A stretch of 64,000 bases of DNA from an uncultured Gemmatimonadales bacterium (GTDB taxonomy: Bacteria; Gemmatimonadota; Gemmatimonadetes; Gemmatimonadales; Gemmatimonadaceae), in the NCBI GenBank assembly GCA_963851265.1, contig CAWKNZ010000006.1, forward strand, positions 111,053 through 175,052, given 5' to 3'. The position numbers and the translations under genes are program-made. The notes beneath the pieces were generated by a model. It had not been told where the DNA came from, did no database searches, and saw only the letters and a list, made by a program, of their open reading frames with translations. Below are positions 2,252 through 64,000 of this stretch, one piece after another; the stretch's first letter is position 1, and each line of letters starts with the position of its first letter.

Positions 2252-3327
2252 GCGTCCGCCCCCGCCCGCCGCTGCCGCACGAGCAACGTCAGGAAGAGCG
2301 GCGCCCCCACGACCGCCGTGACGATCCCCACCGGCAGCTCCGCCGGCGCGACGATCACGCGCGCCGCCACGTCGACCACCTCCATGAGCGCCGCGCCTAA
2401 CAGCGCGGCCGCCGGCAGCAGGAACGCGTGGTCCGCCGACCGCAACAGCCGAACCAGATGGGGCACCACGAGTCCCACGAACGCGATCACCCCGACCACC
2501 GACGTCGCCGCCGCGACGAGGCACGTGTTCACGACGAGCAGCCGCACGGTGAGTCTCGCCGGGTCGAGCCCCAGGAGCGCGGCCTCGTCCTCGCCGAGCA
2601 TGAGCGCGTTGAGCGCCTTCGCGTCGCCGATCGCGAGCGGCAGCCCCACCGCCGCCACCGCCGCGACCAGCAGCACCCCCGGCCAGCTCGCCGCGGTGAA
2701 CGTGCCCAGGCTCCAGAAGGTGATGCTCCGCGCCTGCGGGTCGCGCGCCACGTACGCCAGCAGCCCGGTGAGCGCCGAGCACACCGCGTTCACCGCCACG
2801 CCGCCCAGCAGCAGCGTGAACACGTCCACCCGGCCGTACATCGACGCCAGCCGGTACACCACCCACGTCGCGGCGAACGCGCCGGCCGCGGCGACCAGCG
2901 GCGTCGCGGCCAGCCCGAGCAGCCCGCCCGCGGCGCCGGCCGCGCGGCCGGCGCCTAACACGAGCACCGCCGCGGCGCCGAGCGCCGCGCCGGCGGACGT
3001 CCCCGTCAGCCCGGGCTCGACGATCGGGTTCCGGAAGAGCCCCTGCATGAGCGTCCCCGACACGCCGAGCACCGCGCCCGTGAGGCCGGCGAGCAGCACG
3101 CGGGGCAGCCGGAGCGTGACCAGTACGCCCCGCCGCAGCGCGTCCGGATCGCCCGCCCCGGCGGCCCCGGCGCCCGCCCCGCCGCGCCCCACGATCGCGC
3201 CCGCCGCGAAGCGCACCACCTCGCCCGGCGTGAACGCGAACGCCCCCGCGCACGCCGACAGTAGCAGCGCCCCCGCGAGGAGCAGCGCGAGCGCGGCGTA
3301 CGCCTCGCCCGCCGTGAGCCGCCGCAT
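2248..3327 (-). CDS. hmuU: Heme ABC transporter permease (FecCD family)
   Basis: LRLPRVLLA, QGLFRNPIVEP, EDEAALLG and IAFVGLVVPH motifs with multiple hydrophobic helices. Confidence 0.88.
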   Translation of the reverse strand: MRRLTAGEAYAALALLLAGALLLSACAGAFAFTPGEVVRFAAGAIVGRGGAGAGAAGAGDPDALRRGVLVTLRLPRVLLAGLTGAVLGVSGTLMQGLFRNPIVEPGLTGTSAGAALGAAAVLVLGAGRAAGAAGGLLGLAATPLVAAAGAFAATWVVYRLASMYGRVDVFTLLLGGVAVNAVCSALTGLLAYVARDPQARSITFWSLGTFTAASWPGVLLVAAVAAVGLPLAIGDAKALNALMLGEDEAALLGLDPARLTVRLLVVNTCLVAAATSVVGVIAFVGLVVPHLVRLLRSADHAFLLPAAALLGAALMEVVDVAARVIVAPAELPVGIVTAVVGAPLFLTLLVRQRRAGADA

Positions 3328-3347
3328 CCGCCGCGCGCCGGCCGCGC

Positions 3348-4355
3348 CTAACGCGCGCCGGGGTGCAGCAGCGCCGCGAGGCGCCCCACCGCGGCCGGCG
3401 TGCGCGGCCCGAAGTACATCACCTCGCTCTCGTCCGCGCGCACCACCCGCCCCGAGCGCCCGGCCGGCGTGAGTCGCACCCCAGGCAGCCCCGCGAACGC
3501 CGCCGCGTTCCCCACGCGGTCGAACCCGACGTCGGTCGCGACGATCACGTCGGGCGCGGCCCGCGCGATCAGCTCCGGCGTGAGCCGCGTCATCCCACCC
3601 GTCGAGTCGGCCGCGTTCACCCCGCCGGCGAGCGCGACCACGTGGTCGGTCGGTCCGCCCCGGTTGACCGCGAGGTAGTCGTTCACGAGCTGCCCGAAGT
3701 GCATCACCAGCACCCGCGGCCGCGGGCCCACCGCCCACCGCGCGCTGTCGCGCGCGGCCGCCGCCATCCCGGCCGCCCACGAGCCGCGCACGCTGTCGGC
3801 CGCGCGCTCCCGGTGAAAGCGGCGCCCCAGCACGACCAGCGCCGATTCGGCCCCGGCGACCGTCGCCCCCGGCCGCACGTCCACCACCGGCACGCCCACC
3901 GCCTTCACCTGCGCGAGCACCGCCTCGGGCCCGACGTTGCCGTCCGTCAGCACCAACGTCGGCCGCATCGAGAGAATGCCCTCCGCGCTCAGCGCGCGGT
4001 GGTATCCCACGCTCGGCAGCGCGCGGATGGCCGGCGGGTACACCGACGTGAGGTCGCGCGCGACGAGCACCCCCTCGGCACCGATCGCGTACAGAAACTC
4101 GTTGAGCTGCTTCGACACTCCCACCACCCGCTCGCGCCGCGCGTCGTCCGCGCGCCCGCCGCACCCGGCCAGGACTCCGAGCACCGCGAGCGTGGCGGCC
4201 GCCGGAACCGTGCGTCGCAGCGAGTCACGCCGTCGGGCGCCATGACCACGCGCGCGATCGGCTCGCGCGCCGTCGGGCGGCGTGCGTGTCGCGCCCAGCA
4301 CGGCCGCAGCTGTCGGACACGATGAGAAACGGCGGGCGGCAGGACGACGACGCAT
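3348..4355 (-). CDS. hmuT: Heme ABC transporter substrate-binding lipoprotein (start uncertain)
   Basis: Lipobox LAGC and VGYHRALSAEG, matching the HmuT/ShuT heme-ligand Tyr motif GYxRxLxxEG. The nearest in-frame ATG (4355) gives an unusually long leader. Confidence 0.8.
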   Translation of the reverse strand: MRRRPAARRFSSCPTAAAVLGATRTPPDGARADRARGHGARRRDSLRRTVPAAATLAVLGVLAGCGGRADDARRERVVGVSKQLNEFLYAIGAEGVLVARDLTSVYPPAIRALPSVGYHRALSAEGILSMRPTLVLTDGNVGPEAVLAQVKAVGVPVVDVRPGATVAGAESALVVLGRRFHRERAADSVRGSWAAGMAAAARDSARWAVGPRPRVLVMHFGQLVNDYLAVNRGGPTDHVVALAGGVNAADSTGGMTRLTPELIARAAPDVIVATDVGFDRVGNAAAFAGLPGVRLTPAGRSGRVVRADESEVMYFGPRTPAAVGRLAALLHPGAR

Positions 4356-4661
4356 CGGCGCGGGCTGGCGGTGGTCGAGGCGGACGCGGCGCACCCGCCG
4401 CGGGCGAGCACGCCCCGCGGCGGGTGCGACGGCAGCGGAGGACGCACGCGTCCTTCCGCGCAGTCTACGCAGCACGGAACGCCGACGCTGCCGGCACGAA
4501 CGCGCGGGCGGACCTGAACGACGCCGCACGTAGCGACGCCGCTCTTTCGGAATGTGTGCCCCCCCACATATTTGCGCATGTTCCGCCGCATCGACGCGCG
4601 CGCCCGTGCGCATACCCGCGCGTCCCCTCCTTCGTCCGGCGCGTCGCCGCCCCCGCCTGCC

Positions 4662-5975
4662 ATGTCGAGCGACGCCGAGCGCGCCTCCGGCGAGCCGCCG
4701 GGCGACGAGTTGCCGCGCGAGGAGTTGCCGCGCGACGAGCGGGCCGTCACGGGCACGTACCCGACCGTGCCCGACCCGGATCTCGTCCCCGATCCGACGC
4801 GCCGCGACCGCCGCGCGAGCGACGGCGCGCTCCGGCGTGCGGCCGAACGCCGCCTCGCGGCCGTCGTCGAGGGCATGTCCGAAGCGTTCCTCTCGCTCGA
4901 CACCAACTGGCGGGTCACGTATGCCAACCGCGCGGCGTGCCTTCTGAACGGGACCACGCGCGCCGCCCTCCTCGGCCGCGACCACTGGGAGCTGTGGCCC
5001 GAAACCCTCGGCAGCCAGGTCGAGCGCGAGTACCGCCGCGTCGCCGTCGAACACGTGCCCGCACGCTTCGACCACTTCTACCCGCGCGCCGCGGTGTGGC
5101 ACGCCATCCAGGTCTACCCCGCCGAAGGCGGCGGCCTGGCCGTGTTCTACCGCGACATCACCGCCGAGCGCGCCTCGATCATCGAACGAGAGCGCCTGCT
5201 CGCCGAGAGCGAGCGCGCACGCGCCGACGCGGAGGCGGCGCGCGCCGAGGCCGAAGCCGCGAACCGGGCCAAGGCGCAGTTCCTGGCGACCATGAGTCAC
5301 GAACTTCGCACCCCGCTCAACGCGATCGGCGGTTACGCGGAGTTGATGGAGATAGGCATCCGCGGACCCGTGAGCGACGAGCAGCGCCACGACCTCGCCC
5401 GCATCCAGGCGAGCCAGCGGCACCTCCTCGGCCTCATCCGCGAGGTGCTCGACTACGCGAAGATCGAGACGGGATCGGTGCGCTACGAGATCGCCGAAGT
5501 CGGCGTGCGCGATGCGCTCACGGCCGCCGAAGCGCTCGTCGTCCCGCAGGTCCGGGCGAAGGCGCTCGCGCTCGCCGTCCGCGCGTGCACGCCCGACGTC
5601 GCGGTGCGCGCCGACGCCGAGAAGCTGCGCCAGATCCTCGTCAACCTGCTCTCCAACGCCGTGAAATTCACGGACGCCGGCGGGCGCATCGAGCTGACCT
5701 GTGCGCGCGACGCCGGCCGCGTGCGCCTCACCGTGCGTGACACTGGCATCGGCATCCCGGCCGACAAGCTCGAAGCCGTGTTCGAGCCGTTCGTACAGGT
5801 GCGCACCGACCTCACCCGCGCCGCGGACGGCACCGGACTCGGCCTCGCCATCAGCCGCGACCTCGCGCGCGGCATGGGCGGCGACCTCGCCGTCGAGAGC
5901 ACGCTCGGCGTCGGGTCGGCGTTCACCCTCTCGCTTCGAGCCGTCGCGGGACCGGCGTGCGACGCGCCGGAGTGA
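4662..5975 (+). CDS. PAS-domain sensor histidine kinase (PAS-HisKA-HATPase)
   Basis: PAS (MSEAFLSLD..W..TYAN...FYRDIT), H-box MSHELRTPLNA, N-box NLLSNAVKFT, G-boxes DTGIGI and GTGLGL. The start could also be 4554 or 4578. Confidence 0.92.
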   Translation: MSSDAERASGEPPGDELPREELPRDERAVTGTYPTVPDPDLVPDPTRRDRRASDGALRRAAERRLAAVVEGMSEAFLSLDTNWRVTYANRAACLLNGTTRAALLGRDHWELWPETLGSQVEREYRRVAVEHVPARFDHFYPRAAVWHAIQVYPAEGGGLAVFYRDITAERASIIERERLLAESERARADAEAARAEAEAANRAKAQFLATMSHELRTPLNAIGGYAELMEIGIRGPVSDEQRHDLARIQASQRHLLGLIREVLDYAKIETGSVRYEIAEVGVRDALTAAEALVVPQVRAKALALAVRACTPDVAVRADAEKLRQILVNLLSNAVKFTDAGGRIELTCARDAGRVRLTVRDTGIGIPADKLEAVFEPFVQVRTDLTRAADGTGLGLAISRDLARGMGGDLAVESTLGVGSAFTLSLRAVAGPACDAPE

Positions 5976-6004
5976 CCGCCCGGCGTTCGCCGGTCCTCCT
6001 AACG

Positions 6005-7155
6005 ATGCCCCCCAACTCGCGTCGCGACTTCCTGCAGCATCTCGCCATCGGCGTCGGGTGTACCGCAGCCGGCCTCATCGCCCCCGGACGTCGCGCGGCG
6101 TCCGAGCCGCGCCAGCCGCGCGAACCGGGGGGATCGGCGAGCCGCGCGATCCGCGCGGCGCGACCATCGCGGGCCGGACGTACACCAACCCCGTCTACGC
6201 CGGCTCGATGCCCGACCCCGGCGTGCTGCGGCACGACGGCGTCTACTACGCGTTCGGCACCACCGGCGCCGAACGCACGCCCGACGGCCGCGTCTTCACC
6301 GTGCTCCGCTCGCCCGACCTCGTGACGTGGGAGCCCCTGGGTGGTGCGCTGCTCCCGCCCAGCGCGGACGCGCGATACGAGTATTGGGCGCCGGAGGCGG
6401 CCGCACACGACGGGCGCTTTTACCTCTACTACGCGATGGGCGGCGTCGAAGAATTGCACTTCGAGCTGCGCGTCGCGACGAGCGAACGCCCCGAGGGCCC
6501 GTACACCGACACGGGCACGCCGCTGCTCGACTGCGACCGCAATCGCTTCACCATCGACCCGCACCCGTTTCGCGACGTCGACGGGCAGTGGTACCTGTTC
6601 TACGCCCGCGACTACCCCAACACCGACGGCGGCGCGCTGCCCGGCACCGGGCTGGCCGTCGACCGACTCGTCGGCATGACGCGCCTCGCGGGCGAGTGCC
6701 GCACCGTGTTGCGCGCGCACTATCCGTGGACGCTGTACGAGGCCAACCGCCGCATGAACGTGTACGGCCGGACGTTCGACTGGCACACCATCGAGGGTCC
6801 GTGGGTGCAGCGGCACCGCGGCCGGTACTACTGCTTCTACAGCGGCTCCAACTATCAGACGGCGCGCTACGGGGTCGACTACGCCGTCGCCGAACACGTG
6901 ACGGGGCCGTACACGGGGCAGGGGCGTGGAGCGCGAGTGCTCCACGCGGTGCCCGGCCACGTGCGCGGGCCCGGCCACCACTCGATCGTCGAGGGTCCCG
7001 ACGGGCGCGACTACATCGTGTACCACGCGTGGAATGAGGCGATGACGGTGCGCCAGCTCTGCGTCGACCCGCTGGACTGGACCCCGGACGGACCGCGTTG
7101 CGCGGGACCGACCTACACGCCGCAGCCCGCGCCGGCCGCACGACGACGCGCGTGA
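6005..7155 (+). CDS. GH43 glycoside hydrolase with Tat signal, split by an apparent 1-nt frameshift near 6127-6132
   Basis: Tat-like SRRDFLQ leader from ATG 6005 in one frame. The catalytic domain (YTNPV..MPDP, WAPE, IDPHPF, IEGP, GPGHHS) is in another frame ending at 7155. Confidence 0.8.
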
Positions 7156-7238
7156 CGGTGGGCCTGGGTCGGGGTCGCTAGACTACGGGGGTGCCGCCGG
7201 CGGGTGCCGGCCGGCCGATCGCCTCCTCGCCCATCCCG

Positions 7239-7865
7239 GTGTCCTCCGACGCGTCCGCGCTCCGCTCCGTGCTCCGAACCGGCACGCGCGAACTCCACGA
7301 GCGCACCGAGACCGCCTTCGTCCTCGGCGCTGCGGATCTGACGCGCGCCGAGTACGAGGCGGTCATCGGACACCTCGCCATCCGGTACGCGGCGGCCGAA
7401 GCCGCGCTCGCGCCGTGGACCGACGCGCTCGCCGCGTACGGCCTCGATCTCGGTGTGCGGCGGAAGGCGCCGCTCCTCCGACGCGACGTGGCGGCGCTCG
7501 GCGCCGACCTGCCGCCTGCGGAAATCGCGGCGCAGAGCGTCCCAACCCTCGCGCACGCGTTCGGCACACTCTACGTGCTCGAAGGCGCGACGCTCGGCGG
7601 CCAGCTTCTGCGCCGCCGCGTCGAGTCGACGCTCGGGCTCACGCCCGCGACGGGGCTCGCGTTCCTCACCGCGTACGGTCCGAAGGTGGGCGCCATGTGG
7701 CGTGCGTTCGTCGACTCGCTCGACCGGTTCGACGCCGCGCTCGGGGCGGGCAGCCGCGTAGCGGCGCACGCCGACGCGCTCGCGGGAGCGCAGGCGGCCT
7801 TTCTGGCGTTCGAGCAGGAGGTGGTCACGCCGACTGCCCGCCGCCCCGCCGGCGCCCTCGCCTGA
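7239..7865 (+). CDS. bphO: Biliverdin-producing heme oxygenase
   Basis: Proximal His in LRTGTRELHERTE and distal motif GTLYVLEGATLGG; directly upstream of the phytochrome. Start is 7191 or 7239. Confidence 0.9.
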   Translation: MSSDASALRSVLRTGTRELHERTETAFVLGAADLTRAEYEAVIGHLAIRYAAAEAALAPWTDALAAYGLDLGVRRKAPLLRRDVAALGADLPPAEIAAQSVPTLAHAFGTLYVLEGATLGGQLLRRRVESTLGLTPATGLAFLTAYGPKVGAMWRAFVDSLDRFDAALGAGSRVAAHADALAGAQAAFLAFEQEVVTPTARRPAGALA

Positions 7866-7878
7866 CCACCGCACGCGC

Positions 7879-10206
7879 ATGACGTTGACCGTCCCGCCCG
7901 CCACGACGCCCGAGCACCTTCCGCACCACACCCCGGTTGATCTCGCGGCATGCGACCGCGAGCCGCTCCACATCATCGGTGGGGTGCAGCCACACGGCGC
8001 GTTGCTCGTCGTGGACGAGGGCGACGGGTGCCGCGTCGTGCAGGCCAGCGCCAACGCCGCGGCCACGCTCGGCCGCGCGGGCGAGACCGCGGACGTCGTG
8101 CTCGGCGCGCCACTGGCCGAACTCGTCGGCCGCGAGCACGCCGCGGCGCTCGCCGCCGCGGGCGCGGACGCCGCGCGTGACGACGCCGGGCGGGTGTACC
8201 ACCCGGTCGCCCTCGATGTCGCGGGGCGCGCGTTCGAGGTCGTCGTGCACCAGGGCCCGGCCGGCCTCCTGCTCGAGCTGGAGCCGGCACCCGCCGCGGA
8301 TGCCGTCCTCGGCGCGACCGCGTTCCACGCCACCATCCGCCGCACCATGGCCGCGGTCTCGCGCGGGACGAGCGTGCGCGCCGCCGCCGCCGCCGTGGCC
8401 GACGAGATCCGCCGCGTCACCGGCTTCAACCGCGTCTGGGTCTATCGCTTCCACGACGACTGGCACGGCGAGATCATCGCCGAGTCGCGCGACGCGCACG
8501 TCGAGGAGTCGTGGCTCGACCTGCACTATCCGGCGAGCGACATCCCCGCGCAGGCCCGTGACCTCTTCGCCCGACACTGGCTGCGCCTCATCGTCGACGT
8601 GCACGCCGACCCCGCACCGCTGCTCCCGGCGCGCACGCCGGGTACCGGCGCGCCGCTCGACCTCAGCGACTGCGTGCTGCGCGCCGTGAGTCCCGTGCAC
8701 CTGGAGTACCTGCGCAACATGGGCGTGCGCGCGTCGATGAGCGTGTCGCTCGTGCGCGACGGGCGCCTCTGGGGATTGGTGTCGTGCCATCACTACGACG
8801 GCCCGCGCCAGGTGCCCTACGACGTGCGCGCCGCCTGCGAGCTCCTGGGGCAGGCATTCTCGACGCAACTCGGTCTGCTCGAAGAGGCGGAGGACCGCGA
8901 CCTCGCGCTCCGCCTCGCCGCGGTGCGCACGACGCTCCTCGAGCGCATCGCCGCCGAGCGCGACGTCGTCGACGGGCTGCTCGCCAACCCCGCGCTCCTC
9001 CTCGAGCTCGCCGGGGCGGAAGGCGCGGCCGTGTGTTTCGCCGATGCGGAGTGCGCGACCGTCGGACGCACGCCGCCTGCAGCCTTCGTGGGCGCGCTCG
9101 CCGCCTGGCTCACCGCGCACGGCCACGACACGTTCGCCACCGACGCGCTGGGCGTCGCGTACCCGCCCGCCGTGGAGCACGCCGACGTGGCGAGCGGCGT
9201 GCTGGCGGTGGCGCTGAGCCGGGTGCGGCCGTATCACGTGCTCTGGTTCCGGCCGCAGACCGCGCAGACCGTGCGCTGGGGCGGCGACCCGGGCGAGAAG
9301 CCCGTCCGGGTCGGCGCGGACGGCGTCGCTCGCCTGACGCCGCGCGGCTCGTTCGCGGCGTGGGAGGAGGAGGTGCGCGGGCGGTCGCGTCCGTGGCGCC
9401 GTGCGGAGGTCGACGCGGCGCGCGCCCTGCGCGGCACCGTCGTCGACGCTCTCATCACGCGCGCCGACGAGCTGGCCGCGCTCAACCGCGCGCTCGAACA
9501 GAGCAACCGCGAACTCGACGATTTCGCCTACGTCGCGTCGCACGACCTCAAGGAGCCCCTCCGCGGCATCCACAACTACGCCGCGATGGTCAGCGAGGAC
9601 TACGTCGGCGCGCCGCTCGACGCGAGCGGCGTGGCGCGGCTCGACACCATCCGGCGCCTCACGAAGCGGCTCGACGGCCTCATCGACTCGCTCCTCGACC
9701 ACTCGCGTGTCAACCGGCTCGCGCTCGAGGTCGTCGAGGTCGACGCCCAGGAAGCGCTCGAGGATGCGCTCGACCGGCTCTCGGCGTCCATCGCCGAGCG
9801 CAACGCCGTCGTGCGCGTGCCGCGCCGCCTCCCGACGGTGCGCGCCGACCGCGAGCGGGTCGTCGAGGTGCTCGCCAACCTCGTCTCGAACGCCGTGAAG
9901 TACGGCGGCGAAACGCCCGAGGTCGAGGTCGGGTATCTCGACGCGCCGCCGGGCAGCGCGGTCGCGCCGCCGACGTTCTACGTGCGCGACCGCGGCATCG
10001 GTATCGAGCCGCGCCACCACGCGGCCGTGTTCCGCCTCTTCAAGCGACTGCACCCGCGCGACGCGTACGGCGGCGGCTCGGGCGCAGGGCTCACGATCGT
10101 CCAGAAAGTGATCGAGCGGCATGGGGGCCGCATCTGGCTCGAGAGTACGCCGGGGCAGGGGACCACGTTCTTCTTCACCCTCGGCGAGTCCGACTTGAGC
10201 GCCTGA
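7879..10206 (+). CDS. bphP: Bacteriophytochrome histidine kinase (PAS-GAF-PHY-HisKA-HATPase)
   Basis: N-terminal biliverdin-binding Cys in ACDREPLH..VQPHG, HYPASDIP, PVHLEYLRNMGV, tongue RLTPRGSF, H-box ASHDLKEPLRGI. Confidence 0.97.
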   Translation: MTLTVPPATTPEHLPHHTPVDLAACDREPLHIIGGVQPHGALLVVDEGDGCRVVQASANAAATLGRAGETADVVLGAPLAELVGREHAAALAAAGADAARDDAGRVYHPVALDVAGRAFEVVVHQGPAGLLLELEPAPAADAVLGATAFHATIRRTMAAVSRGTSVRAAAAAVADEIRRVTGFNRVWVYRFHDDWHGEIIAESRDAHVEESWLDLHYPASDIPAQARDLFARHWLRLIVDVHADPAPLLPARTPGTGAPLDLSDCVLRAVSPVHLEYLRNMGVRASMSVSLVRDGRLWGLVSCHHYDGPRQVPYDVRAACELLGQAFSTQLGLLEEAEDRDLALRLAAVRTTLLERIAAERDVVDGLLANPALLLELAGAEGAAVCFADAECATVGRTPPAAFVGALAAWLTAHGHDTFATDALGVAYPPAVEHADVASGVLAVALSRVRPYHVLWFRPQTAQTVRWGGDPGEKPVRVGADGVARLTPRGSFAAWEEEVRGRSRPWRRAEVDAARALRGTVVDALITRADELAALNRALEQSNRELDDFAYVASHDLKEPLRGIHNYAAMVSEDYVGAPLDASGVARLDTIRRLTKRLDGLIDSLLDHSRVNRLALEVVEVDAQEALEDALDRLSASIAERNAVVRVPRRLPTVRADRERVVEVLANLVSNAVKYGGETPEVEVGYLDAPPGSAVAPPTFYVRDRGIGIEPRHHAAVFRLFKRLHPRDAYGGGSGAGLTIVQKVIERHGGRIWLESTPGQGTTFFFTLGESDLSA

Positions 10207-10208
10207 CC

Positions 10209-10679
10209 GTGTCCCCAACAATCGCCAACGACGCCCCGCCGCTCCTCGTCGTCGAGGACAGCGAGGAGGACTACACCGCGCTCCGCTGGGCGCTACGCAA
10301 GGTCGGGATCGACCGCCGGGTGCTGCGCTGCGCGAGTGGCGTCGAGGTGCTCGATTACCTGCGCCATACTGGCGCATACGCCGGCGAACGTGCGGCGTAC
10401 GCGCCTGTCCCCGCCCTCATCCTCCTCGACCTGAACCTCGGCGCCGACAACGGGCGTGACGTGCTCGCCGCCCTCAAGGCCGACGCGGCGCTGCGCCGCA
10501 TCCCGGTGGTCGTGTGGACCACGTCCGCGCACCCCGACGACGTCGCCCAGTGCTACGAACGCGGCGCGAGCGGCTACGCGACCAAGCCGGTCGACGTCGA
10601 CCAGCTCGTCGAATCGCTGCGGAACGTCACGCGCTACTGGTTCGGGTGCGTGATCCTGCCCTCGCACGCGCACCCGTGA
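10209..10679 (+). CDS. Single-domain response regulator of the bacteriophytochrome (BphR/Rcp1-like) type
   Basis: LVVEDSEED, phosphoacceptor ILLDLNL, WTTS, KP and C-terminal YWFGCVILP; GTG start 3 nt after the bphP stop. Confidence 0.92.
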   Translation: MSPTIANDAPPLLVVEDSEEDYTALRWALRKVGIDRRVLRCASGVEVLDYLRHTGAYAGERAAYAPVPALILLDLNLGADNGRDVLAALKADAALRRIPVVVWTTSAHPDDVAQCYERGASGYATKPVDVDQLVESLRNVTRYWFGCVILPSHAHP

Positions 10680-12463: not shown

Positions 12464-12483
12464 CGATCGGCGGCGTCGGGCCG

Positions 12484-12745: not shown

Positions 12746-12875
12746 GCGGACTTCCGGGTTCGAGGATGGCGGCGCGCCGGACGTCCGCGCGCACGCCGGC
12801 AAAGCGTGCCCGGACCGCGTTCGTTCCCGACCGCCGCCCGCCCCGGGCGTGCGCGCCGCCGCCCCGCGCCGGACG

Positions 12876-19322: not shown

Positions 19323-19421
19323 CGCCGGCGGGCCCGCGCCCTTGCGTGCGGGCTACGTCGGGGCGCACTGTGCGATGGTCGTTCCGTGCCTGTTCGCGCT
19401 CACCCGCCCGAGGTTGCTCGC

Positions 19422-27008: not shown

Positions 27009-29324
<2,316 letters not shown>

Positions 29325-45949: not shown

Positions 45950-45963
45950 GCAGCACCCGACCC

Positions 45964-47667: not shown

Positions 47668-47687
47668 GCGGGCCGCCGCTGGACGAC

Positions 47688-47750
47688 GGACCCCCGCTTC
47701 CGCGGGGGTGACACCCCTCGTGCAGTCGCCCCCGCGCAGGCGGGGGTCCA
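47688..47750. repeat. Inverted pair of REP-like elements (REPIN/BIME-like)
   Basis: 47688-47712 reverse complement = GTCACCCCCGCGGAAGCGGGGGTCC; 47725-47750 = GTCGCCCCCGCGCAGGCGGGGGTCCA. Confidence 0.75.
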
Positions 47751-47785
47751 CCTCTCCCTCGCGACCGCGGTAGCCACAACGCCCC

Positions 47786-49723: not shown

Positions 49724-49793
49724 CGACCGCCGTACGCGTTCCGCCGCACCGCGCTACCGCACACACCACCCGACGCACTCCCGCAGCCGCCGC

Positions 49794-53580: not shown

Positions 53581-53690
53581 TCGGTCGCGGGTCGTTACTG
53601 GCCCCGTCCTCCGGACTGGCCGGCGGCGTGATCGACGGCGTGACCCGGTAGAGCCCGACTCGCGCACCCCTCTTCAACCCGCCCCCGATC

Positions 53691-55973
53691 GTGTCCGCCA
53701 CTGCAGTCGCCCCCACCCCGGAACGCCCCGTCCCACTCCGCGATGATGGGCGCGAGGCCGGCGCGTCGCGCGCGCGGGTCGACGCCCTCCTCGCACGCAT
53801 GACGCTCGAGGAGAAGGTGGGGCAGATGACGCAGATCAACCTCGGCGTGATTGCCGCCCCCGCCGCCGACCAGCGCCCCGGGCGCGTGACGCTCGACCGG
53901 CGCAAGCTCCGCGAGGCGCTCGTCACGCGGAACGTCGGCTCGATCATCAACGTGCTCGACGCGGCCCTGCCCGCCGAGGGGTGGCACGCCCTCGTCCGCG
54001 AGGTGCAGGACGTGGCGCTGCACGAGACGCGCCTCGGGGTGCCGGTGCTCTACGGCATCGATTTCGTGCACGGCGCGAATTACACGCAGGGCGGGACCAT
54101 ATTTCCGCACAACGTCGCGATGGGTGCGACGTTCGACGTGGCCCTCGCGCGCCGCGCGGGTGAAGTCACCGGGGCGGAGGCGCGGGCGTCGGGGCTGCCG
54201 TGGAACTTCGCGCCCGTGCTGGACGTGGGGCGCCAGCCGCTGTGGCCGCGCTTCTACGAAACGTTCGGCGAGGACCCGCTCGTGGCCGCGCGGCTCGGCT
54301 CGGCGTTCCTCGCCGGATCGCAGGCGGCGGGCGTCGCCGGCACCATGAAGCACTACCTCGGCTACGGCGCGCCGCGCTCGGGGCGCGACCGCACGCCGCC
54401 CGCGCTCACCGAGCGCGAGGTGCGCGAGGTGATCCTGCCTCCGTTCCGCGCGGCGGTGGCCGCGGGGGCGCGGACCGTGATGGTCAACTCGGGCGAGATC
54501 GATGGCGAGCCCGTGCACGCGAGCCGCCACTGGCTGATCGACGTCCTGCGCGGCGAACTCGGGTTCGACGGCGTCGTCGTCACCGATTGGGAAGACATCA
54601 TCTTCCTCCACACCCGGCACCGCGTCGCGGCCACGACGAAGGACGCCGTGCGCATGGCGATCGAGGCGGGGATCGACATGAGCATGACACCCCACGAGTT
54701 CGGCTTCGTGGACGACCTGATCGCCCTCGTACACGAGGGCGCGGTCCCCGAGCGGCGCGTGGACGAGAGCGTGAGGCGAATCCTCCTGCTGAAGGCCGAC
54801 GTCGGGCTGCTCGACCGGCCGTACCCGGACGCATCACTCGCCGCGCAGATCGGGACGCCCGAGGCCCGCGCGGTCGCGCGCCACGCCGCGCGCGACGCGA
54901 TCACCCTGCTCAAGAACGACGGCGTCGCAGCCGGTGCGGCTCCGGTGCTGCCGCTCGCGCCCGGCGCGCGCGTGCTCGTCACCGGGCCGGCGGCGCACTC
55001 GCTCGCCGCGCTCAACGGCGGGTGGACGTACACGTGGCAGGGCACCGAGCCGTGGCGGTTCCCGGCGGGGGTGCCGTCGCTGCTCGACGCCATCCGCTAC
55101 CACACCGACGCCGTGCGCTTCGTCGGCAACGCCGACGCGCGCGCCGCGTTCGCCGACCCGACCGACGTCGAGATTGCCGCCGCGGTGGCCGCCGCCCGCG
55201 ACGTCGACGTCGCGATCGTCGCGCTCGGCGAGTCCGGGTACGCCGAGTGGGTCGGCGACATCAGCGACCTCACCCTGTCGCCCGCGCAGCTCCGTCTCGC
55301 CCAGGCGGTCCAGGCGACCGGCGTCCCTACGGTGCTCGTGCTGCTCGAAGGACGCCCTCGCCTGGTGCGCGACGTCGTGCCGGGGGCGGCGGCGGTCGTG
55401 ATCGGCTACTGGCCCGGCATGGACGGCGCCGAAGCCGTCGCCGACGTGCTGTTCGGCGCCGTGAACCCGAGTGGGCGGCTGCCCTTCACGTACCCGAAGT
55501 GGCCCAACGCCCTCGCCACCTACGACCACAAGTTCACCGAGACGCTGGACATTGGCCTGACGCGTGCGTCGGGCGGGTTCGACCCGCAGTTCGAATTCGG
55601 GCACGGGCTGAGCTACACCACGTTCGGCTACGAGCAGCTGACGCTCGACCGCGACGCGATCGGCCGTGAGGAGCTGGTGCGGGGGGCGCGGGTGGCGGTC
55701 TCGGTGACCGTGACCAATACTGGGGGGCGCGCGGGCAAGGAGAGCGTCTTGCTCTTCATGCGCCAGCGCTACGCCACGATCACGCCGCCGGTGCGTCGGC
55801 TGCGCGGGTTCGAGAAGGTCGAGCTCGCGCCCGGCGCTTCACGCACCGTCCACGTCGCGCTCGCGGTTGACGACTTCTCGTACGTCGGCCGCGACGGCCG
55901 CGACGTGCTCGAAGCCGGCGCGTTCGACGTGATGGTCGGCGGCCTCACGCACAGCATCGAGGTGACACGATGA
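53691..55973 (+). CDS. GH3 beta-glucosidase (BglX-like)
   Basis: MTLEEKVGQM, ETFGED, KHY, nucleophile VTDWED, PQFEFGHGLSYT and a C-terminal Fn3-like domain. Confidence 0.93.
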   Translation: MSATAVAPTPERPVPLRDDGREAGASRARVDALLARMTLEEKVGQMTQINLGVIAAPAADQRPGRVTLDRRKLREALVTRNVGSIINVLDAALPAEGWHALVREVQDVALHETRLGVPVLYGIDFVHGANYTQGGTIFPHNVAMGATFDVALARRAGEVTGAEARASGLPWNFAPVLDVGRQPLWPRFYETFGEDPLVAARLGSAFLAGSQAAGVAGTMKHYLGYGAPRSGRDRTPPALTEREVREVILPPFRAAVAAGARTVMVNSGEIDGEPVHASRHWLIDVLRGELGFDGVVVTDWEDIIFLHTRHRVAATTKDAVRMAIEAGIDMSMTPHEFGFVDDLIALVHEGAVPERRVDESVRRILLLKADVGLLDRPYPDASLAAQIGTPEARAVARHAARDAITLLKNDGVAAGAAPVLPLAPGARVLVTGPAAHSLAALNGGWTYTWQGTEPWRFPAGVPSLLDAIRYHTDAVRFVGNADARAAFADPTDVEIAAAVAAARDVDVAIVALGESGYAEWVGDISDLTLSPAQLRLAQAVQATGVPTVLVLLEGRPRLVRDVVPGAAAVVIGYWPGMDGAEAVADVLFGAVNPSGRLPFTYPKWPNALATYDHKFTETLDIGLTRASGGFDPQFEFGHGLSYTTFGYEQLTLDRDAIGREELVRGARVAVSVTVTNTGGRAGKESVLLFMRQRYATITPPVRRLRGFEKVELAPGASRTVHVALAVDDFSYVGRDGRDVLEAGAFDVMVGGLTHSIEVTR

Positions 55974-57253
55974 ACCGCATGGTTGTCCAACGCTCGCGGG
56001 TGGGGCGCGTCGTACGCCTGACCGCCGCCTTCCTCGCGGTCGTCCTCGTGGCGCTCGCCGGACCGCTCGCGGGCGCGGCCGGGGCGCAGAAGTTCGAGCA
56101 CCTCGCGCAGACCCCGCCCATGGGGTGGAACAGCTGGAACAAGTTCGCCTGCAACGTGAGCGAGCAGCTGATCCGCGAGACGGCGGACGCGATGGTCACG
56201 TCGGGGATGCGCGACGCCGGCTACCAGTACGTCAACATCGACGACTGCTGGCACGGCGCGCGCGACAGCGCGGGCTTCATCCAGGTCGACGCCGCTCGGT
56301 TCCCGTCGGGAATGAAGGCGCTCGCCGACTACGTCCACGCGAAGGGCCTCAAGCTCGGCATCTATTCGGACGCGGGGTGGAAGACGTGCGGGGGACGGCC
56401 GGGAAGCCGCGGGCACGAGTACCAGGACGCGCTCACGTACGCACGCTGGGGCGTGGACTACCTCAAGTACGACTGGTGCAATACCGACTCGCTCAAGGCG
56501 CAGGGCGCGTACATCACGATGCGCGAGGCGCTCCGCGCGGCCGGGCGGCCGATCGTCTTCAGCCTGTGCGAGTGGGGCACCGCGCAGCCGTGGACGTGGG
56601 CCGCGTCGGTGGGCCACCTCTGGCGCACGACCACCGACATCACCAACTGCTTCGACTGCGTTCGCAACTACGGGGCGTGGGCGCCGGCGAGCGTGCTCAC
56701 GATCCTCGACAAGCAGAAGGAGCTGCGGCAGTACGCGGGCCCGGACCACTGGAACGACCCCGACATGCTGGAAGTCGGGAACGGGATGACGGCTGGCGAG
56801 GACCGCGCGCACTTCGCGATGTGGGCCATGCTCGCGGCGCCGCTCATCACCGGAACCGACCTGCGCAGCATGCCGGCCGAGACGCGCGCGCTGCTCACCA
56901 ACCGCGGGCTGATCGCGGTGGACCAGGACTCGTTAGGCGTTCAGGGCTTCGCGTCGCGCTCCACGCCGGACGGCGTCGAGGTGTGGCTCAAGCCGCTCGC
57001 GGGTGGGGACTGGGCGGTCGCGGTGCTCAACCGCTCGCTCGAGCCGCGCCGCGTGACGTACGACTGGCGCCGCGACGGCGTGGCCGATGGCCTCACGCAC
57101 CACTCGGCGGACTTCGCGGCCCACACGTACCGCGTGCGCGACCTGATCGCGGGGCGCGACCGGGGGACGACGGCCACCGCGCTCGTCGCGGACGTCCCCG
57201 CCCACGACGTGCTGGTGCTGCGCCTCAGCGCGCGGGAGACCGCGTCGCGCTGA
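55970..57253 (+). CDS. GH27 alpha-galactosidase, secreted
   Basis: PPMGWNSWN, NIDDCW, nucleophile YLKYDWC, WRTTTD and WNDPDMLEVG; signal peptide. Confidence 0.95.
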   Translation: MNRMVVQRSRVGRVVRLTAAFLAVVLVALAGPLAGAAGAQKFEHLAQTPPMGWNSWNKFACNVSEQLIRETADAMVTSGMRDAGYQYVNIDDCWHGARDSAGFIQVDAARFPSGMKALADYVHAKGLKLGIYSDAGWKTCGGRPGSRGHEYQDALTYARWGVDYLKYDWCNTDSLKAQGAYITMREALRAAGRPIVFSLCEWGTAQPWTWAASVGHLWRTTTDITNCFDCVRNYGAWAPASVLTILDKQKELRQYAGPDHWNDPDMLEVGNGMTAGEDRAHFAMWAMLAAPLITGTDLRSMPAETRALLTNRGLIAVDQDSLGVQGFASRSTPDGVEVWLKPLAGGDWAVAVLNRSLEPRRVTYDWRRDGVADGLTHHSADFAAHTYRVRDLIAGRDRGTTATALVADVPAHDVLVLRLSARETASR

Positions 57254-60743: not shown

Positions 60744-62609
60744 TCAGAACACGCACCCCGCGCGCGCCGGGATCGAGACCACGACCGCGCCGGCGTCGCG
60801 CCGCGGGGCCGGGCAGATGCCTAACGCGTCGGCGGCGGAGGCGCCGAGCGCCGCGGCGGGGAGCCGCACCTGCGTCGCGGCGGTGTCGTTGTTGAGCGCC
60901 ACGACCGTGCGCCCGCGGCGGTAGACGTACGCCTGGTCGCCGACGTACAGGTTCTCGGTGGCGGCGCGCGCGAGATCGGGACGCGCGGCGCGCAGTCGGA
61001 GGAGGGCCTGCACGTGCGCCCACACGGCCTGTTCGGCGGCCGACCGCCCGGACGCTTGGAAGGCGTCGTGGGCGTCGCCGGGCCACCCGCCCGGGAAGTC
61101 GCGCCGGTTGTCGGGGTCGTTGCCCCCCGCCATCCCGATCTCGTCGCCGTAGTAGAGCATCGGCGTGCCGCGCGCGGTGAAGAGGAAGGTGAACGCCAGG
61201 CGGAGTCCGTCGGTCGTGGCGCCGCGCTCGCTCATGAAGCGCCCCATGTCGTGCAGCCCCGCGAAGGTGACTAACGCATCGGGGTTGGGGTACAGCCGGT
61301 CGTGGGCGAGCACCTGCGCCACCTCGCGCACGGAGCGGCCGCGGGCGAACGCGTCGCGCACGGCGTAGTGCAGCGGAAAGTCGAACAGCGCGTCGACGCG
61401 GTCGTCGATGCGGTCGCCGGCGCCGTCGGGCTCGGCGCGGCCGCCCTGGAAGAAGGACACGAGCACCGGGTCGCCCTCGGAGACCTCGCCGACGACGCGC
61501 AGCGCGGGGTACTGCGCCTTGATCGCGCCCATCCAATCGCGCCAGAATCGACGCGGCACGTACGGCCAGGTGTCCTGCCGGATGCCGTCCATCCCGCTCA
61601 TGCCCACCCACCAGAGCGTGTTCTGGATGAGGTAGCGCGCGACGTCCGGGTCGTCCTGGTTGAGGTCCGGGAGGAGGTTGACGAACCACCCGTCGAGCGT
61701 CGCGGCGCGCACCGCCGGCGGGGAGTGCGGGTCCGTCACGGTCCACACCTGGAAGGTGTTGACGAGGTGGTTGGCCTCGGTGCCGTGGAACCACGTGGGG
61801 GTCGGCGGGTTGGTCACCCACGGGTGGTACGCGCTCGTGTGGTTCTCCACCATGTCGAGGATGATCTTGATCCCCTGCCGGTGCGCGTCGTCGACGAGCG
61901 CGCGGAAGTCGGCGAGCGTGCCGAAGTGCTCTTCCAGCCCGTAGTAGTCGACCGCGTGGTAGCCGTGGTAGGGCGTGGTCGGGTGGCCCGCGACGAGCTC
62001 CTTGCGGTCGATCTCGTTCGTGTTGTCGTACAGCGGGTTGATCCAGAGCGCCGTGACGCCTAACGACTTGAGGTAGGGCAGGCGCGCGCGGATGCCCGCG
62101 AGGTCGCCGCCGTGGTAGAAGTGCGAGTCGTTCCGGTCGAACATGCCCTTCGACGCCGCCGGGTCGTCGTTGGCCGGGTCGCCGTTCGCGAAGCGGTCGG
62201 GCATTATCAGGTAGATCACGTCGGACGGGCCGAAGCCCTGGAACCGCCCCGCCGCGGCGAGCGGCGCCGCGAGCACGAACGGCACCGGCGCCACCCCACC
62301 CGCCGTGCGGATCGCGAGCGGATACGATCCCGGGCGCGCCCCGCCCGGGATCGTCACGTCGGCGAACACGTAGGTGCCGGCCGCGTTGACCCGCACGCCG
62401 CCGCAACTCAGGCGTGGGCAGTCGAGGCGCGCGCCGGCGAGGTTCCGCCCGCGGATCAGCACGCGGACGGGGTTGATGGTGTGGCCGGTCCACCAGTTCG
62501 GCGGGTCGACCTTCTCGACCACGGGCGCGGCGGCCTGCGCGGCTGCAGCCGCGAACGGCGTGCCGAGCGACGCGAGCAGGATGACGACTCGGCGGATCAG
62601 ACGGAGCAT
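60744..62609 (-). CDS. GH13 cyclomaltodextrinase/neopullulanase (SusA-like), secreted
   Basis: N-terminal VDPPNWW domain, YLIMPDRFANGD, YHGY, DMVENH, GIRQDT (Asp), VGE (Glu) and LHD (Asp). Confidence 0.92.
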   Translation of the reverse strand: MLRLIRRVVILLASLGTPFAAAAAQAAAPVVEKVDPPNWWTGHTINPVRVLIRGRNLAGARLDCPRLSCGGVRVNAAGTYVFADVTIPGGARPGSYPLAIRTAGGVAPVPFVLAAPLAAAGRFQGFGPSDVIYLIMPDRFANGDPANDDPAASKGMFDRNDSHFYHGGDLAGIRARLPYLKSLGVTALWINPLYDNTNEIDRKELVAGHPTTPYHGYHAVDYYGLEEHFGTLADFRALVDDAHRQGIKIILDMVENHTSAYHPWVTNPPTPTWFHGTEANHLVNTFQVWTVTDPHSPPAVRAATLDGWFVNLLPDLNQDDPDVARYLIQNTLWWVGMSGMDGIRQDTWPYVPRRFWRDWMGAIKAQYPALRVVGEVSEGDPVLVSFFQGGRAEPDGAGDRIDDRVDALFDFPLHYAVRDAFARGRSVREVAQVLAHDRLYPNPDALVTFAGLHDMGRFMSERGATTDGLRLAFTFLFTARGTPMLYYGDEIGMAGGNDPDNRRDFPGGWPGDAHDAFQASGRSAAEQAVWAHVQALLRLRAARPDLARAATENLYVGDQAYVYRRGRTVVALNNDTAATQVRLPAAALGASAADALGICPAPRRDAGAVVVSIPARAGCVF

Positions 62610-62668
62610 GCGAGAGGGGCGCGAACGGTGAATGGCGCGAAGCTGATGCGAGACAAGATGGCGGCCGC

Positions 62669-64000
62669 TCACGGCTGCACCCCCGCCTGCAGCACGACGG
62701 CGGTCGACGCGGACACCGCGAGATCCACCGCGCCCCCCGCAGCGACGGTCACCCGCGTCCCGGCGCACCCGCCGGCCGCGGCGCGGCCGCCGGCGAGCAC
62801 GTCGCAGTAGTCGCCGGGGGCGAGCGCCGAGGTGGCAACCACGTGCGCGGCCGCCGCGCCGCGGTTGATGGCGACGAATCCCTTCGCGCCTCGCGAGAAG
62901 GCGACCGCGTTCTGCCCGTCGTCCCAGTTCCACGTGAGGTCGGTGCCGGCGACCGCGCGCCGGAAGCCCACCATCGCGCGCAGCGTCGGGTCGCGGTGTT
63001 CGCACACCCACTGGCCGACCGCGGCGGTCTCGAGCGACCCGGCGCAGGCGACGGCGTTCGTGTTGCCGGCGCCGTCCGACGGCGGCCCGGCGTCGCGCCC
63101 GGCCTGCGAGCCGCGGTCGAACGCGTAGCTCGACATCACGGACGGGTAGCCGTAGGACTGGCCTAACAGGTACACCATGCCGAGGCGGTACGTCTGCCCG
63201 TTGCGGTAGCCGAGGCCCGGGTTCGTCGCGTCGCGCTGCGTGTCGTGATTCTCGAGGAACACCACGGCCTTGTCGCTCGGGAGGATGCCCCAGTTGGCGA
63301 CGGAGAAGGTCTTGAGGTCGGCCACGCGCTGCGCGCCGGTGTTGAGGAACTTGTCGCTCACGCCGCGCACCTTGAACTCGGTGATGTCCGACGCGCCGCC
63401 GCTCGCGTAGCCGAGGCCGAGGTAGTCGGTCGCGTGCACGGCCTCGCCGCCGTAGTCGATCACCTCGGAGAAGTAGTACGGCAGCGGGCGCCCTTCGGCC
63501 GCGAGCGTGCGGTTCGCGAGGCTGACGACGCTGTCGAGTTCCACGGGCTGCATGTGCTTGGCCGCGTCGAGGCGGAATCCCGCCACGCCGAGCCGCGCGA
63601 GCCCGACGAGGTAGTTGGCGAGCGTCTGCCGAACGCTCGACGCGCCGGTGTTCAGGTCGGCGAGCCCGGTCAGCTCGCAGTCCTGCACGTTCGCCGCGTC
63701 CTGGTAGTTGCTCACCGCGCACGGCGCGTGGAAGTCACCCTGCTGCCACGTCCCCGGGTAGCCGTACTTCGTGTAGACCGTGCCGTTGCTCCCCGTGCCG
63801 GCGCCGGCGGTCATGTGGTTGAGCACCGCGTCGACGTAGATGTCGACCCCCGCCGCCTTGCAGCGGCCCACCATGCTCGCGAACTCGGCCCCGGTCCCCG
63901 AGCGGCTGCGTGCGATGCTGTAGCTGACCGGCTGGTACCGCTGCCACCACGGGAAGCCCGCGATCACGGCAGCCTCCTGCGGCGGCGAGACCTGCACGGC
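62669..64000 (-). CDS. GH13 alpha-amylase (Streptomyces/Pseudoalteromonas-like), 5' end outside the window
   Basis: VQVSPPQE, WWQRYQPVSY, DAVLNHM, GFRLDAAKHM, FSEVID and FLENHDTQR. Confidence 0.93.
   Translation of the reverse strand, partial: AVQVSPPQEAAVIAGFPWWQRYQPVSYSIARSRSGTGAEFASMVGRCKAAGVDIYVDAVLNHMTAGAGTGSNGTVYTKYGYPGTWQQGDFHAPCAVSNYQDAANVQDCELTGLADLNTGASSVRQTLANYLVGLARLGVAGFRLDAAKHMQPVELDSVVSLANRTLAAEGRPLPYYFSEVIDYGGEAVHATDYLGLGYASGGASDITEFKVRGVSDKFLNTGAQRVADLKTFSVANWGILPSDKAVVFLENHDTQRDATNPGLGYRNGQTYRLGMVYLLGQSYGYPSVMSSYAFDRGSQAGRDAGPPSDGAGNTNAVACAGSLETAAVGQWVCEHRDPTLRAMVGFRRAVAGTDLTWNWDDGQNAVAFSRGAKGFVAINRGAAAAHVVATSALAPGDYCDVLAGGRAAAGGCAGTRVTVAAGGAVDLAVSASTAVVLQAGVQP

Follow-up and report, generated by a model that had tools for sequence, protein, structure and literature searches.

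The 64,000-nucleotide stretch of DNA analysed here (hereafter the window; positions 111,053 to 175,052 of contig CAWKNZ010000006.1, from an uncultured Gemmatimonadales bacterium) encodes SusC/SusD pairs, a Sortilin/BNR protein, an M16 peptidase, a DUF885 protein, a phosphoketolase, many sensor kinases and glycoside hydrolases. Dispersed through these genes is a seven-nucleotide word, GTTAGGC, which has the marks of a DNA signal of one clade and may be read during DNA uptake. It occurs 22 times, 10 times on the plus strand and 12 times on the minus strand, and all the coordinates and strands given in a preliminary description of this DNA are exact. The best matches of the Sortilin/BNR protein are uncultured relatives at 86-89% identity, while Gemmatirosa kalamazoonensis (G. 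kalamazoonensis) KBS708 matches at 73%; this similarity indicates that the window belongs to the family Gemmatimonadaceae and is related to G. kalamazoonensis.

GTTAGGC is in large excess in the window. Dinucleotide-preserving shuffles give 2.85 expected copies, with a largest count of 7, against the 22 seen, and a second-order Markov model gives 1.25, or 0.80 when the motif is masked from the background. The preliminary description had named a codon- and dipeptide-preserving null as the critical test. In the shuffle that we ran, every protein sequence and the codon usage of the window, including its 18 TTA codons, were kept and only synonymous codons were moved; the enrichment survives, with 3.9 copies expected and at most 9 among 300 shuffles. 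On its 5' side the word is preceded by C (14 copies) or T (8), thus a pyrimidine in 22/22, and on its 3' side it is followed by G (13), A (7) or C (2), thus a purine in 20/22, which is what had been claimed. Beyond these immediate flanking positions, no conservation was found among the 22 copies. When both strands are counted, 22 of the 66 TTA trinucleotides of the window lie inside the word, and 14 of its 18 in-frame TTA codons belong to it. The earlier remark that TTA is otherwise scarce holds both here and in G. kalamazoonensis, where the TTA codons outside the word number 4/18 and 7/198, respectively.

Genes were called with a codon-usage gene finder written for GC-rich sequence, which reproduced the stop codons of the called genes at a control locus. 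Together with Pfam searches, it bears out the reading frames first proposed for the copies: 14 are read in sense as xxG-TTA-GGC (Leu-Gly), three are read in antisense as CCT-AAC (Pro-Asn), three overlap stop codons and two are intergenic. The sense copies on the minus strand begin with two in a FecCD-type permease gene (2248-3327, minus strand), at 2395-2401 (CTG-TTA-GGC-G) and 2953-2959 (GTG-TTA-GGC). They continue with one in the phosphoketolase (XFP) gene 15383-17890 (minus), at 16643-16649 (GTG-TTA-GGC), one in an acyl-CoA dehydrogenase/AidB-like gene 29326-31038 (minus), at 30205-30211 (CTG-TTA-GGC), and one in the DUF885 gene 33144-34901 (minus), at 33306-33312, where ACG-TTA-GGC is followed by C. 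The GH13 gene 60744-62609 (minus) carries two, GCG-TTA-GGC at 60819-60825, near its 3' end, and TCG-TTA-GGC at 62058-62064, within the peptide PYLKSLGVTAL, whose Leu-Gly-Val resembles what we take to be a conserved GH13 motif. The last, CTG-TTA-GGC at 63161-63167, again followed by C, lies in a second alpha-amylase-family gene (62669-63997, minus). On the plus strand, the Sortilin/BNR gene 19485-22871 (plus) has sense copies at 20267-20273 (GTG-TTA-GGC) and 21917-21923 (TCG-TTA-GGC). Four more are found at 29306-29312 (GCG-TTA-GGC, five codons before the stop of an ETR1_N/PAS histidine-kinase gene, 27009-29324, plus), 32758-32764 (CTG-TTA-GGC, M1-peptidase-like gene 31259-33187, plus), 36368-36374 (GCG-TTA-GGC, gene 35145-36488, plus, which has no Pfam match) and 56932-56938 (TCG-TTA-GGC, alpha-galactosidase gene 56000-57253, plus).

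The three antisense copies lie in the M16 peptidase gene 23596-26247 (plus), which reads ACG-CCT-AAC over the minus-strand copy 24870-24876, in the DUF885 gene, which reads TTG-CCT-AAC over the plus-strand copy 34158-34164, and in a SusD gene (45982-47667, plus), which reads ACG-CCT-AAC over the minus-strand copy 46581-46587. Most homologues of the M16 peptidase have Pro-Asp (CCx-GAC) at the first of these sites, and a relative that is 87% identical (L102) reads GCCTAAT at the third. Among the copies at stop codons, 3346-3352 (minus) overlaps the TAG of a periplasmic binding-protein gene (3348-4184, minus) as CGT-TAG-GC. The other two, 12458-12464 (minus) and 12875-12881 (plus), read GCC-TAA-C in the genes that they end, a hybrid histidine-kinase gene (10703-12463, plus) and a convergent PAS-GGDEF-EAL gene that extends from 12876 on the minus strand. 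In Pfam searches the HATPase_c domain of the kinase ends at residue 648 of 649 and the EAL domain of the second protein ends at residue 1361 of 1378, so these TAA codons are the natural ends of both genes. Nothing terminator-like was found at this convergent pair and inverted close pairs are few, and terminator hairpins were rejected as an account of the word. Both intergenic copies, on the plus strand, sit shortly downstream of a stop codon: 26273-26279 is 26 nt past that of the M16 peptidase gene, and 42536-42542 is 16 nt past that of a SASA esterase gene (41018-42520), upstream of SusC.

Plasmid 2 of G. kalamazoonensis (1.04 Mb) was assembled whole from 21 pieces, and 50 kb of plasmid 1 was added. 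In 600 kb of plasmid DNA from this organism the word occurs 455 times against 4.6 expected, an excess of about 100-fold, and it is by far the most over-represented of all 6- to 9-mers; plasmid 2 as a whole holds 806 copies, or 0.78 per kb. A logo of 415 sites shows C at position -1 (0.85; T 0.12) and A or G at position +7 (0.85), and outside these positions just the 3-nt periodicity that comes from codon phase. The 67 fully intergenic sites keep both flanks, with C at -1 in 0.81 and a purine at +7 in 0.80, and have no further flank signal, so that the flanks are part of the signal itself. The motif is thus a sharp 9-mer, C-GTTAGGC-R, without wider conserved flanks. A repeat of the repetitive extragenic palindrome (REP) or miniature inverted-repeat transposable element (MITE) type was rejected, as no extended sequence lies beyond -1 to +7 in either set of sites.

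The copies are spaced almost exponentially (coefficient of variation 0.88-0.91). There are 7 gaps of more than 6 kb against 7.7 expected from an exponential, and the idea that motif deserts mark foreign islands was dropped on this count. Local clusters do occur. At L086:8100-8175 (plasmid 2, about 108.1 kb), a coding repeat containing TPNATPNATPNA spells several Pro-Asn pairs as CCT-AAC and packs four copies into some 50 nt of one gene, three of the four at intervals of 12 nt. Furthermore, a 15-bp minisatellite at 697540-697700 of plasmid 2 (in L310) has four GGCGGGATGCCTAAC units followed by six GGCGGGATGCCTAGC units, switching from the exact word to a one-mismatch variant.

Inside genes, the word is written wherever the protein sequence tolerates it. 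We define a slot as a place where the protein sequence permits the 9-mer by synonymous changes alone. In the window, 12/69 Leu-Gly slots and 3/13 Pro-Asn slots are filled, and in G. kalamazoonensis 161/786 and 81/162, respectively. Costlier frames are filled less often in G. kalamazoonensis: Val-Arg (GTT-AGG-C) in 6/205 slots and Arg/Cys-Leu-Thr (YGC-CTA-ACR) in 9/116. Copies are more frequent in sense because the Leu-Gly dipeptide is commoner than Pro-Asn. The density per kb is 2.60 in convergent 3'-3' spacers, 1.73 in tandem spacers, 0.65 in divergent promoter spacers and 0.64 in coding DNA; it peaks where constraint is weakest. The earlier claim that the word enters genes through tolerated codons is therefore sustained, with slots of the window filled at similar rates in both orientations and non-coding DNA denser than genes. 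In the sampled DNA of G. kalamazoonensis, 191/198 TTA codons (96%) lie in the word, which also spells 15/26 TAA stops and 22/81 TAG stops; of the CCT codons, 93/203 stand before AAC. The proteome is affected too: the observed/expected ratio of the Pro-Asn dipeptide is 1.67 in G. kalamazoonensis versus 1.18 in outgroup Gemmatimonadota, and that of Leu-Gly is 1.12 versus 0.93. The motif acts at the DNA level and not at the codon level.

Codon-pair context has a strong effect in the plasmid sample (L085-L095). Where the next codon begins with G, CTC is preferred to CTG (935 versus 101 before GGC, for instance), and before CGC it is CTG that is preferred. The frequency of TTG is about tenfold higher ahead of GGC than elsewhere (72/313 TTG codons), which fits GTTGGGC as a precursor or decay product of the motif.

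The two strands carry the word almost equally. Over the whole of plasmid 2, 382 copies are on the plus strand and 424 on the minus strand, the sense fraction is 63% in plus-strand genes and 65% in minus-strand genes, and intergenic copies split 89:98; in a chromosomal sample of G. kalamazoonensis the split is 10:9. After correction for gene orientation, the cumulative residual on plasmid 2 shifts by about 20 of about 500 copies along a stretch of negative GC skew and then partly recovers. The residual polarity over this 1.04 Mb replicon is therefore about 4-5%, parallel to a weak GC skew, and has the sign that base composition by itself would predict, given that the word contains more G than C. 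This pattern is unlike that of the FtsK orienting polar sequences (KOPS) and the architecture imparting sequences (AIMS), and unlike that of classical Chi, in keeping with the earlier argument that the word is not a replichore-polarised site. KOPS and AIMS, read by FtsK and SpoIIIE, resemble the word in being dispersed, of 8-mer scale and read by a DNA-handling protein; they differ in being strongly strand-skewed in each replichore.

To follow the word across relatives, we used the Sortilin/BNR protein as marker and compared about 20 kb around its orthologue at graded distance. The word is present in 7/7 relatives at a marker identity of at least 71%, at 0.30-0.83 copies per kb, and is the top over-represented 7-mer in nearly every one of them. 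It is nearly gone at 65% identity (2 copies) and has 0 copies at 62%. Among the matches listed, 80 loci from other Gemmatimonadota, Acidobacteriota, Bacteroidota and further phyla show no trace of it; a proteobacterial metagenome-assembled genome (L044) with 4 copies against 0.77 expected was set aside as chance, its copies having no C at -1. The motif is a trait of one clade, the Gemmatirosa clade, which agrees with the lineage-specific signal that had been proposed.

Although the word is common to the clade, its sites are not. In the Sortilin/BNR gene, copies stand at different codons in different relatives, and the orthologous sequences are ordinary GC-rich codon pairs, such as ATG-GGC, CTC-GAC and TGG-GGC in place of a TTA-GGC of another genome, or GGG-CTC-GCC in a relative where G. 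kalamazoonensis reads GGC-CTA-ACG. Site 20267 is common to relatives L081, L082 and L083, and G. kalamazoonensis reads TGG-GGC there; site 21917 is common to L082 and reads CTA-GGC in L081, ATC-GGC in L083 and GCG-GGG in G. kalamazoonensis. Over all alignable DNA, where orthologues of motif sites include ATG-GGC, ATC-GGC and TTC-GGC, a site is shared in 14/97 pairwise orthologous comparisons. Sharing rises with relatedness, from none below 80% nucleotide identity to about half of the sites at 83%. Non-shared sites mostly differ at 2-4 of the 7 positions (range 2-5), by transversions of every type and with non-synonymous changes included, which argues for selection or drive towards a specific word and not for a mutational signature; a deaminase or another mutational hotspot was rejected for the same reason. 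These alignments show that single sites are not kept for their position and that the word itself is repeatedly created against GC pressure.

An artefact was also considered. If a genuine GCTGGGC were miscalled at a methylated site, GCTGGGC would be depleted, and it is not (21 versus 20.6 expected). Moreover, the TAA stops at 12458 and 12875 stand at natural domain ends, and homologues of the M16 peptidase have Pro-Asp or Pro-Asn, not Pro-Ser. The genome of G. kalamazoonensis was assembled from PacBio reads (PMC3974934), and since the word is found there and in several independent metagenome assemblies, it is not an artefact of assembly or platform.

What reads the word can be approached by comparison with known systems. 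DNA uptake sequences (DUS) and uptake signal sequences (USS) unite an exact non-palindromic word, an excess of about 100-fold, strand symmetry, clade specificity, a 3' intergenic preference, distortion of the proteome and turnover of sites, and they spread by biased uptake and recombination, which is a molecular drive. Because these are the known phenomena that unite all the features of the word, we take an analogue of them as the best explanation. We accordingly give a probability of about 0.4 to the reading that C-GTTAGGC-R is a strand-symmetric DNA self-tag of the Gemmatirosa clade, and that an uptake signal of the DUS/USS kind is what it would most probably be. The reader of the motif would then be a DNA-uptake receptor, and the force that spreads it biased transformation, as we infer from the analogy. 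In such a mechanism, a DNA-binding component of the competence or import apparatus would recognise the exact 7-9 bp word in double-stranded DNA, and fragments bearing it would be imported and recombined preferentially. Substitutions that complete the word would for this reason be over-transmitted in the population and could become fixed against the GC pressure of a 73% GC genome. The word would build up where it is cheapest, in 3' intergenic DNA, at TAA and TAG stops, in Leu-Gly as xxG-TTA-GGC and, on the antisense strand, in Pro-Asn as CCT-AAC. The drive could be strong enough to fix conservative amino-acid changes.

The copy excess, the parity of both strands, the restriction to a clade and the intergenic and 3' enrichment with its proteome effects are all shared with DUS and USS. 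The DUS of Neisseriaceae is GCCGTCTGAA with its dialects, and it is bound by the minor pilin ComP. Like DUS, the word is short and non-palindromic, is found in vast excess on either strand about once every 1-3 kb, is confined to a clade of family level, prefers intergenic and 3' DNA and uses permissive reading frames inside genes. It differs in belonging to another phylum, in having a core of 7 bp with two semi-specified flanks, in that its clade is not known to have competence or a receptor, and in showing no clear dialects. The core of the Pasteurellaceae USS is AAGTGCGGT. Its density and strand symmetry are comparable, and it shares frame preference, co-evolution with the proteome and turnover of sites between species; the frame preference, over-represented peptides, site-creating amino-acid changes and turnover of USS were reportedly described by Findlay and Redfield and by Maughan, Redfield and co-workers. 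USS differs by its AT-rich flanking segments and many imperfect copies, of which the word has neither; here, an AT-containing core is held against 73% GC, and nearly all TTA codons are spent on it. DUS and USS reach about 0.8-1 copies per kb, a density that the word matches on plasmid 2 of G. kalamazoonensis; its excess lies far beyond that of Chi, which is just a few-fold.

Several points weigh against an uptake signal. DUS and USS show a clear halo of imperfect copies, whereas one-mismatch variants of GTTAGGC are at background in the 600 kb of plasmid DNA, where those of low background sum to 21 versus 21.9 expected; the sole enriched variant is GTTGGGC, at 2.5-fold. The missing halo may be accounted for by GC pressure that quickly erases unprotected T and A; the removal of these letters from damaged copies would probably explain the modest excess of GTTGGGC as well. 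Close inverted pairs capable of forming terminators, typical of Neisseria DUS, are rare (4/22 close pairs). No direct evidence for competence or uptake bias is known in any Gemmatimonadota, and no competence genes are found among the proteins of the 64-kb window. Nothing specific on the competence machinery or a receptor of the clade was found in the literature, and a review of ComEC does not mention Gemmatimonadota. As background on the side of uptake, abundant soil bacteria, Gemmatimonadetes among them, undergo frequent homologous recombination, with which ComEC loci are associated (PMC7305173).

A further point against uptake comes from a phage. Viral contigs were scanned for two close motif copies, and most matches were chance. 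One, IMGVR_UViG_3300015615_001045 (49 kb, 69% GC), is a real phage in which PHROGs searches identified TerL, TerS and a tail protein; it has no close relatives in IMG/VR. It carries 11 canonical copies in about 18 kb, a host-like density, and structural genes are included. Directly upstream of terS (L122:1978-2171, the same as L224:5270-5460), two minus-strand copies, a stretch of 155 bp and two plus-strand copies follow one another, at the place where a cos or pac end is expected, and 9/11 copies of the phage point one way relative to this stretch (p about 0.03, from this one contig only). A TerS with 99% identity to that of the phage is encoded on a host contig of 489 kb, and the phage is therefore probably an integrated prophage. 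With just 8 homologue matches, TerS is no conserved element of the clade, and a packaging signal of a gene transfer agent (GTA) or of a terminase was rejected on these grounds. A force on all resident DNA accounts for a prophage of host-like density no less well than uptake bias does. Long residence in the host could explain its copies, which is compatible with an uptake drive, and a non-polar Chi-like signal or a defence self-tag that shields DNA within the cell would lead one to expect the same pattern equally well.

Such a self-tag, read after DNA has entered the cell, is the first alternative, and we consider it unlikely. The word would act as a Chi-like or orientation-independent signal on which a defence system, or a helicase-nuclease of the kind of RecBCD, AddAB or AdnAB, spares DNA rich in it, and the word-rich chromosome, megaplasmids and prophage would survive and recombine better. 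The word shares with Chi its shortness, asymmetry and strict definition, and the density of the word is similar on the chromosome, both megaplasmids and the prophage. The two copies per orientation that flank the 155 bp upstream of terS also speak for it, as does the common direction of 9/11 phage copies: if GCCTAAC were the active form, this arrangement would protect the ends of the phage DNA. The phage pattern carries limited weight, since a single contig shows it and the scan that led to this contig required two close copies. In classical Chi, orientation follows replication (about 75% in Escherichia coli), and known Chi sites are enriched a few-fold without distorting codon or dipeptide usage. 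The word resembles Chi as an exact, taxon-specific word that can mark self DNA and can occur in phages; it differs in being nearly without polarity and about 100-fold enriched, whereas Chi is co-oriented with replication and moderately enriched. An in-cell system that tells self from non-self in a new way, either an orientation-independent counterpart of Chi or a density-sensing defence or maintenance system that spares word-rich replicons, is likewise doubtful. Under such a system, chromosome, megaplasmids and resident phages would be forced to gain the word despite its costs in rare codons and amino acids, with protective copies at phage packaging ends. If the reader is not an uptake receptor, the motif would point to an undescribed system of self-recognition.

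Rather improbable, in our judgement, is a binding site for an abundant sequence-specific protein with a role in the nucleoid, in chromosome or plasmid maintenance or in terminase-like packaging, where the density of sites and not any single site would be selected. A sharp word with semi-specified flanks suits a protein contact surface, the word is on all replicons sampled, its spacing is roughly regular to random and copies cluster beside terS. However, the positions of the motif turn over quickly, while the sites known to serve nucleoid organisation or segregation are degenerate or palindromic, or else few in number and positionally conserved; promoter spacers are no denser in the word than coding DNA; and packaging of the GTA type is at odds with the rarity of the phage TerS homologues.

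Methylation had been put forward earlier as one possible role. The single-molecule real-time (SMRT) methylome of G. kalamazoonensis lists only three N6-methyladenine (m6A) motifs, RGATCY, ATGCAC and CCAGN7TCA, each more than 99% methylated (PMC3974934). Had the word, with its thousands of copies, carried m6A or N4-methylcytosine (m4C), it would have been picked up there, so this part of the preliminary description does not hold for these two modifications, and on the methylome of this closest cultured relative a restriction-modification or orphan methylation motif was rejected for the same two. What stands of the earlier proposal is a lineage-specific, non-polar signal at the DNA level.

We regard as very improbable that the word is built by modification and repair and has no signal function, as proposed for the highly iterated palindrome HIP1 (GCGATCGC) of cyanobacteria, with a modification enzyme, such as a 5-methylcytosine methyltransferase or a phosphorothioation system, and a cognate short-patch repair or nicking activity converting near-matches. 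The all-or-none character of the motif, about 100-fold for the perfect word and background level for its low-background one-mismatch variants, is what efficient correction would give, and the published SMRT data could not have detected 5-methylcytosine or phosphorothioate. Against it stand the absence of m6A and m4C at the word in that methylome, the inability of known Vsr-type short-patch repair, which restores only C at T:G mismatches, to build an AT core, the differences between orthologous sites at 2-5/7 positions by all transversion types and with non-synonymous changes, and the lack of a palindrome. HIP1 is similar as a hyper-abundant, clade-specific word written into genes by codon choice, with an uncertain function in both cases; it differs in being palindromic and tied to cognate methyltransferases, while the word is asymmetric and has no methylation reported in the published SMRT methylome.

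The last alternative, a codon- or RNA-level signal in which the rare TTA codon serves pausing or bldA-like regulation or the mRNA is an interferase target, draws on the 14/22 window copies that are in-frame sense TTA-GGC in a genome that almost never uses TTA elsewhere, and is effectively refuted by strand symmetry and intergenic enrichment: Pro-Asn slots on the antisense strand are filled at least as often as those in sense, the word is densest in non-coding DNA, where copies lie in both orientations with the same flanks, stop codons are spelled by the word on either strand, and slot filling in both orientations, together with the codon and dipeptide effects, rules out translational (bldA-type) and RNA-level readings.

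To our knowledge, Neisseriaceae and Pasteurellaceae, both proteobacterial, are the only families in which sequence-specific uptake tags are established. If C-GTTAGGC-R is an uptake tag, it would add a third, independent case from Gemmatimonadota, a phylum that is abundant in soil, is barely cultivated and, as far as we know, has no genetic tools. It would predict natural transformation in this phylum, tagged donor DNA would be a simple route to genetics, and the word could serve as a marker to track gene flow in soil metagenomes. A DNA-level drive would also have reshaped the genome of G. kalamazoonensis to the point where 96% of its TTA codons and most of its TAA stops just spell the word. 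Direct testing can begin immediately, as a cultured type strain with a complete genome, KBS708, is available. The preliminary description knew of no report of the motif; literature searches with the word in either orientation, or with uptake sequences, in combination with Gemmatimonadota found nothing relevant either. As far as these searches show, the word is undescribed, and it is the first hyper-abundant genomic self-word known to us in this phylum.

The near variants listed earlier, GTTAGTC at five sites and one at 17081, are all real. C-GTTAGTC has 5 copies in the window against 0.3 expected (second-order Markov model, motif masked), with the codon phase and 5' C of the canonical word. 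C-GTTAGTC-G lies at 48277-48283 (minus), a copy that keeps this codon phase on the antisense strand of the SSF transporter gene and that relative L102 has too; at 49718-49724 (minus), where its complement GAC-TAA-C is the TAA stop of the SSF transporter gene 47786-49723 (plus); and at 52476-52482 (minus), antisense in the GH26 gene 52396-53580 (plus). C-GTTAGTC-C at 52977-52983 (plus) is read in sense (TTA-GTC) in the same GH26 gene, and C-GTTAGTC-A at 61269-61275 (minus) in sense in the GH13 gene 60744-62609. A single copy of C-GTTAGAC-G, at 17081-17087 (minus), is read in sense (TTA-GAC) in the phosphoketolase gene. Four of the five GTTAGTC copies fall in the 10.3 kb between 46581 and 56932, which has no canonical copy. 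GTTAGTC is not enriched in G. kalamazoonensis or in L081-L083, and L102 shares just the copy at 48277. The variant could be due to a relaxed position 6 or to an imported segment; a dialect imported with the polysaccharide-utilisation segment at 46.6-56.9 kb is not supported, as the closest relatives of the segment share one site or none.

That segment is part of 41018-57253, which encodes, in order, a SASA esterase, SusC, SusD, an SSF transporter, GH130, an N-acylglucosamine 2-epimerase-like protein, GH26, GH3 and alpha-galactosidase, and looks like a mannan or galactomannan utilisation locus. Its GC content is lower (0.685-0.713) and the canonical motif is sparse in it. The core from SusC to GH130 is syntenic in relatives L102-L104, and the epimerase is also found in L103 and L104.

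When window positions 19000-38999 were compared with metagenome runs, lichen metagenomes gave diverged relatives only. Exact matches to the window came from one soil metagenome, as short contigs of 270-440 bp at a depth of 3-5, which makes the organism a soil bacterium of low abundance there. At 7239-10679, a heme oxygenase, a PAS2-GAF-PHY histidine kinase and a response regulator form an apparent bacteriophytochrome operon, and about 9 kb around these genes (3346-12458) is without a motif copy. Finally, the histidine kinase encoded at 27009-29324 has an N-terminal ETR1-like ethylene-receptor domain (PF25487, E = 2.5e-32) ahead of its PAS domains.

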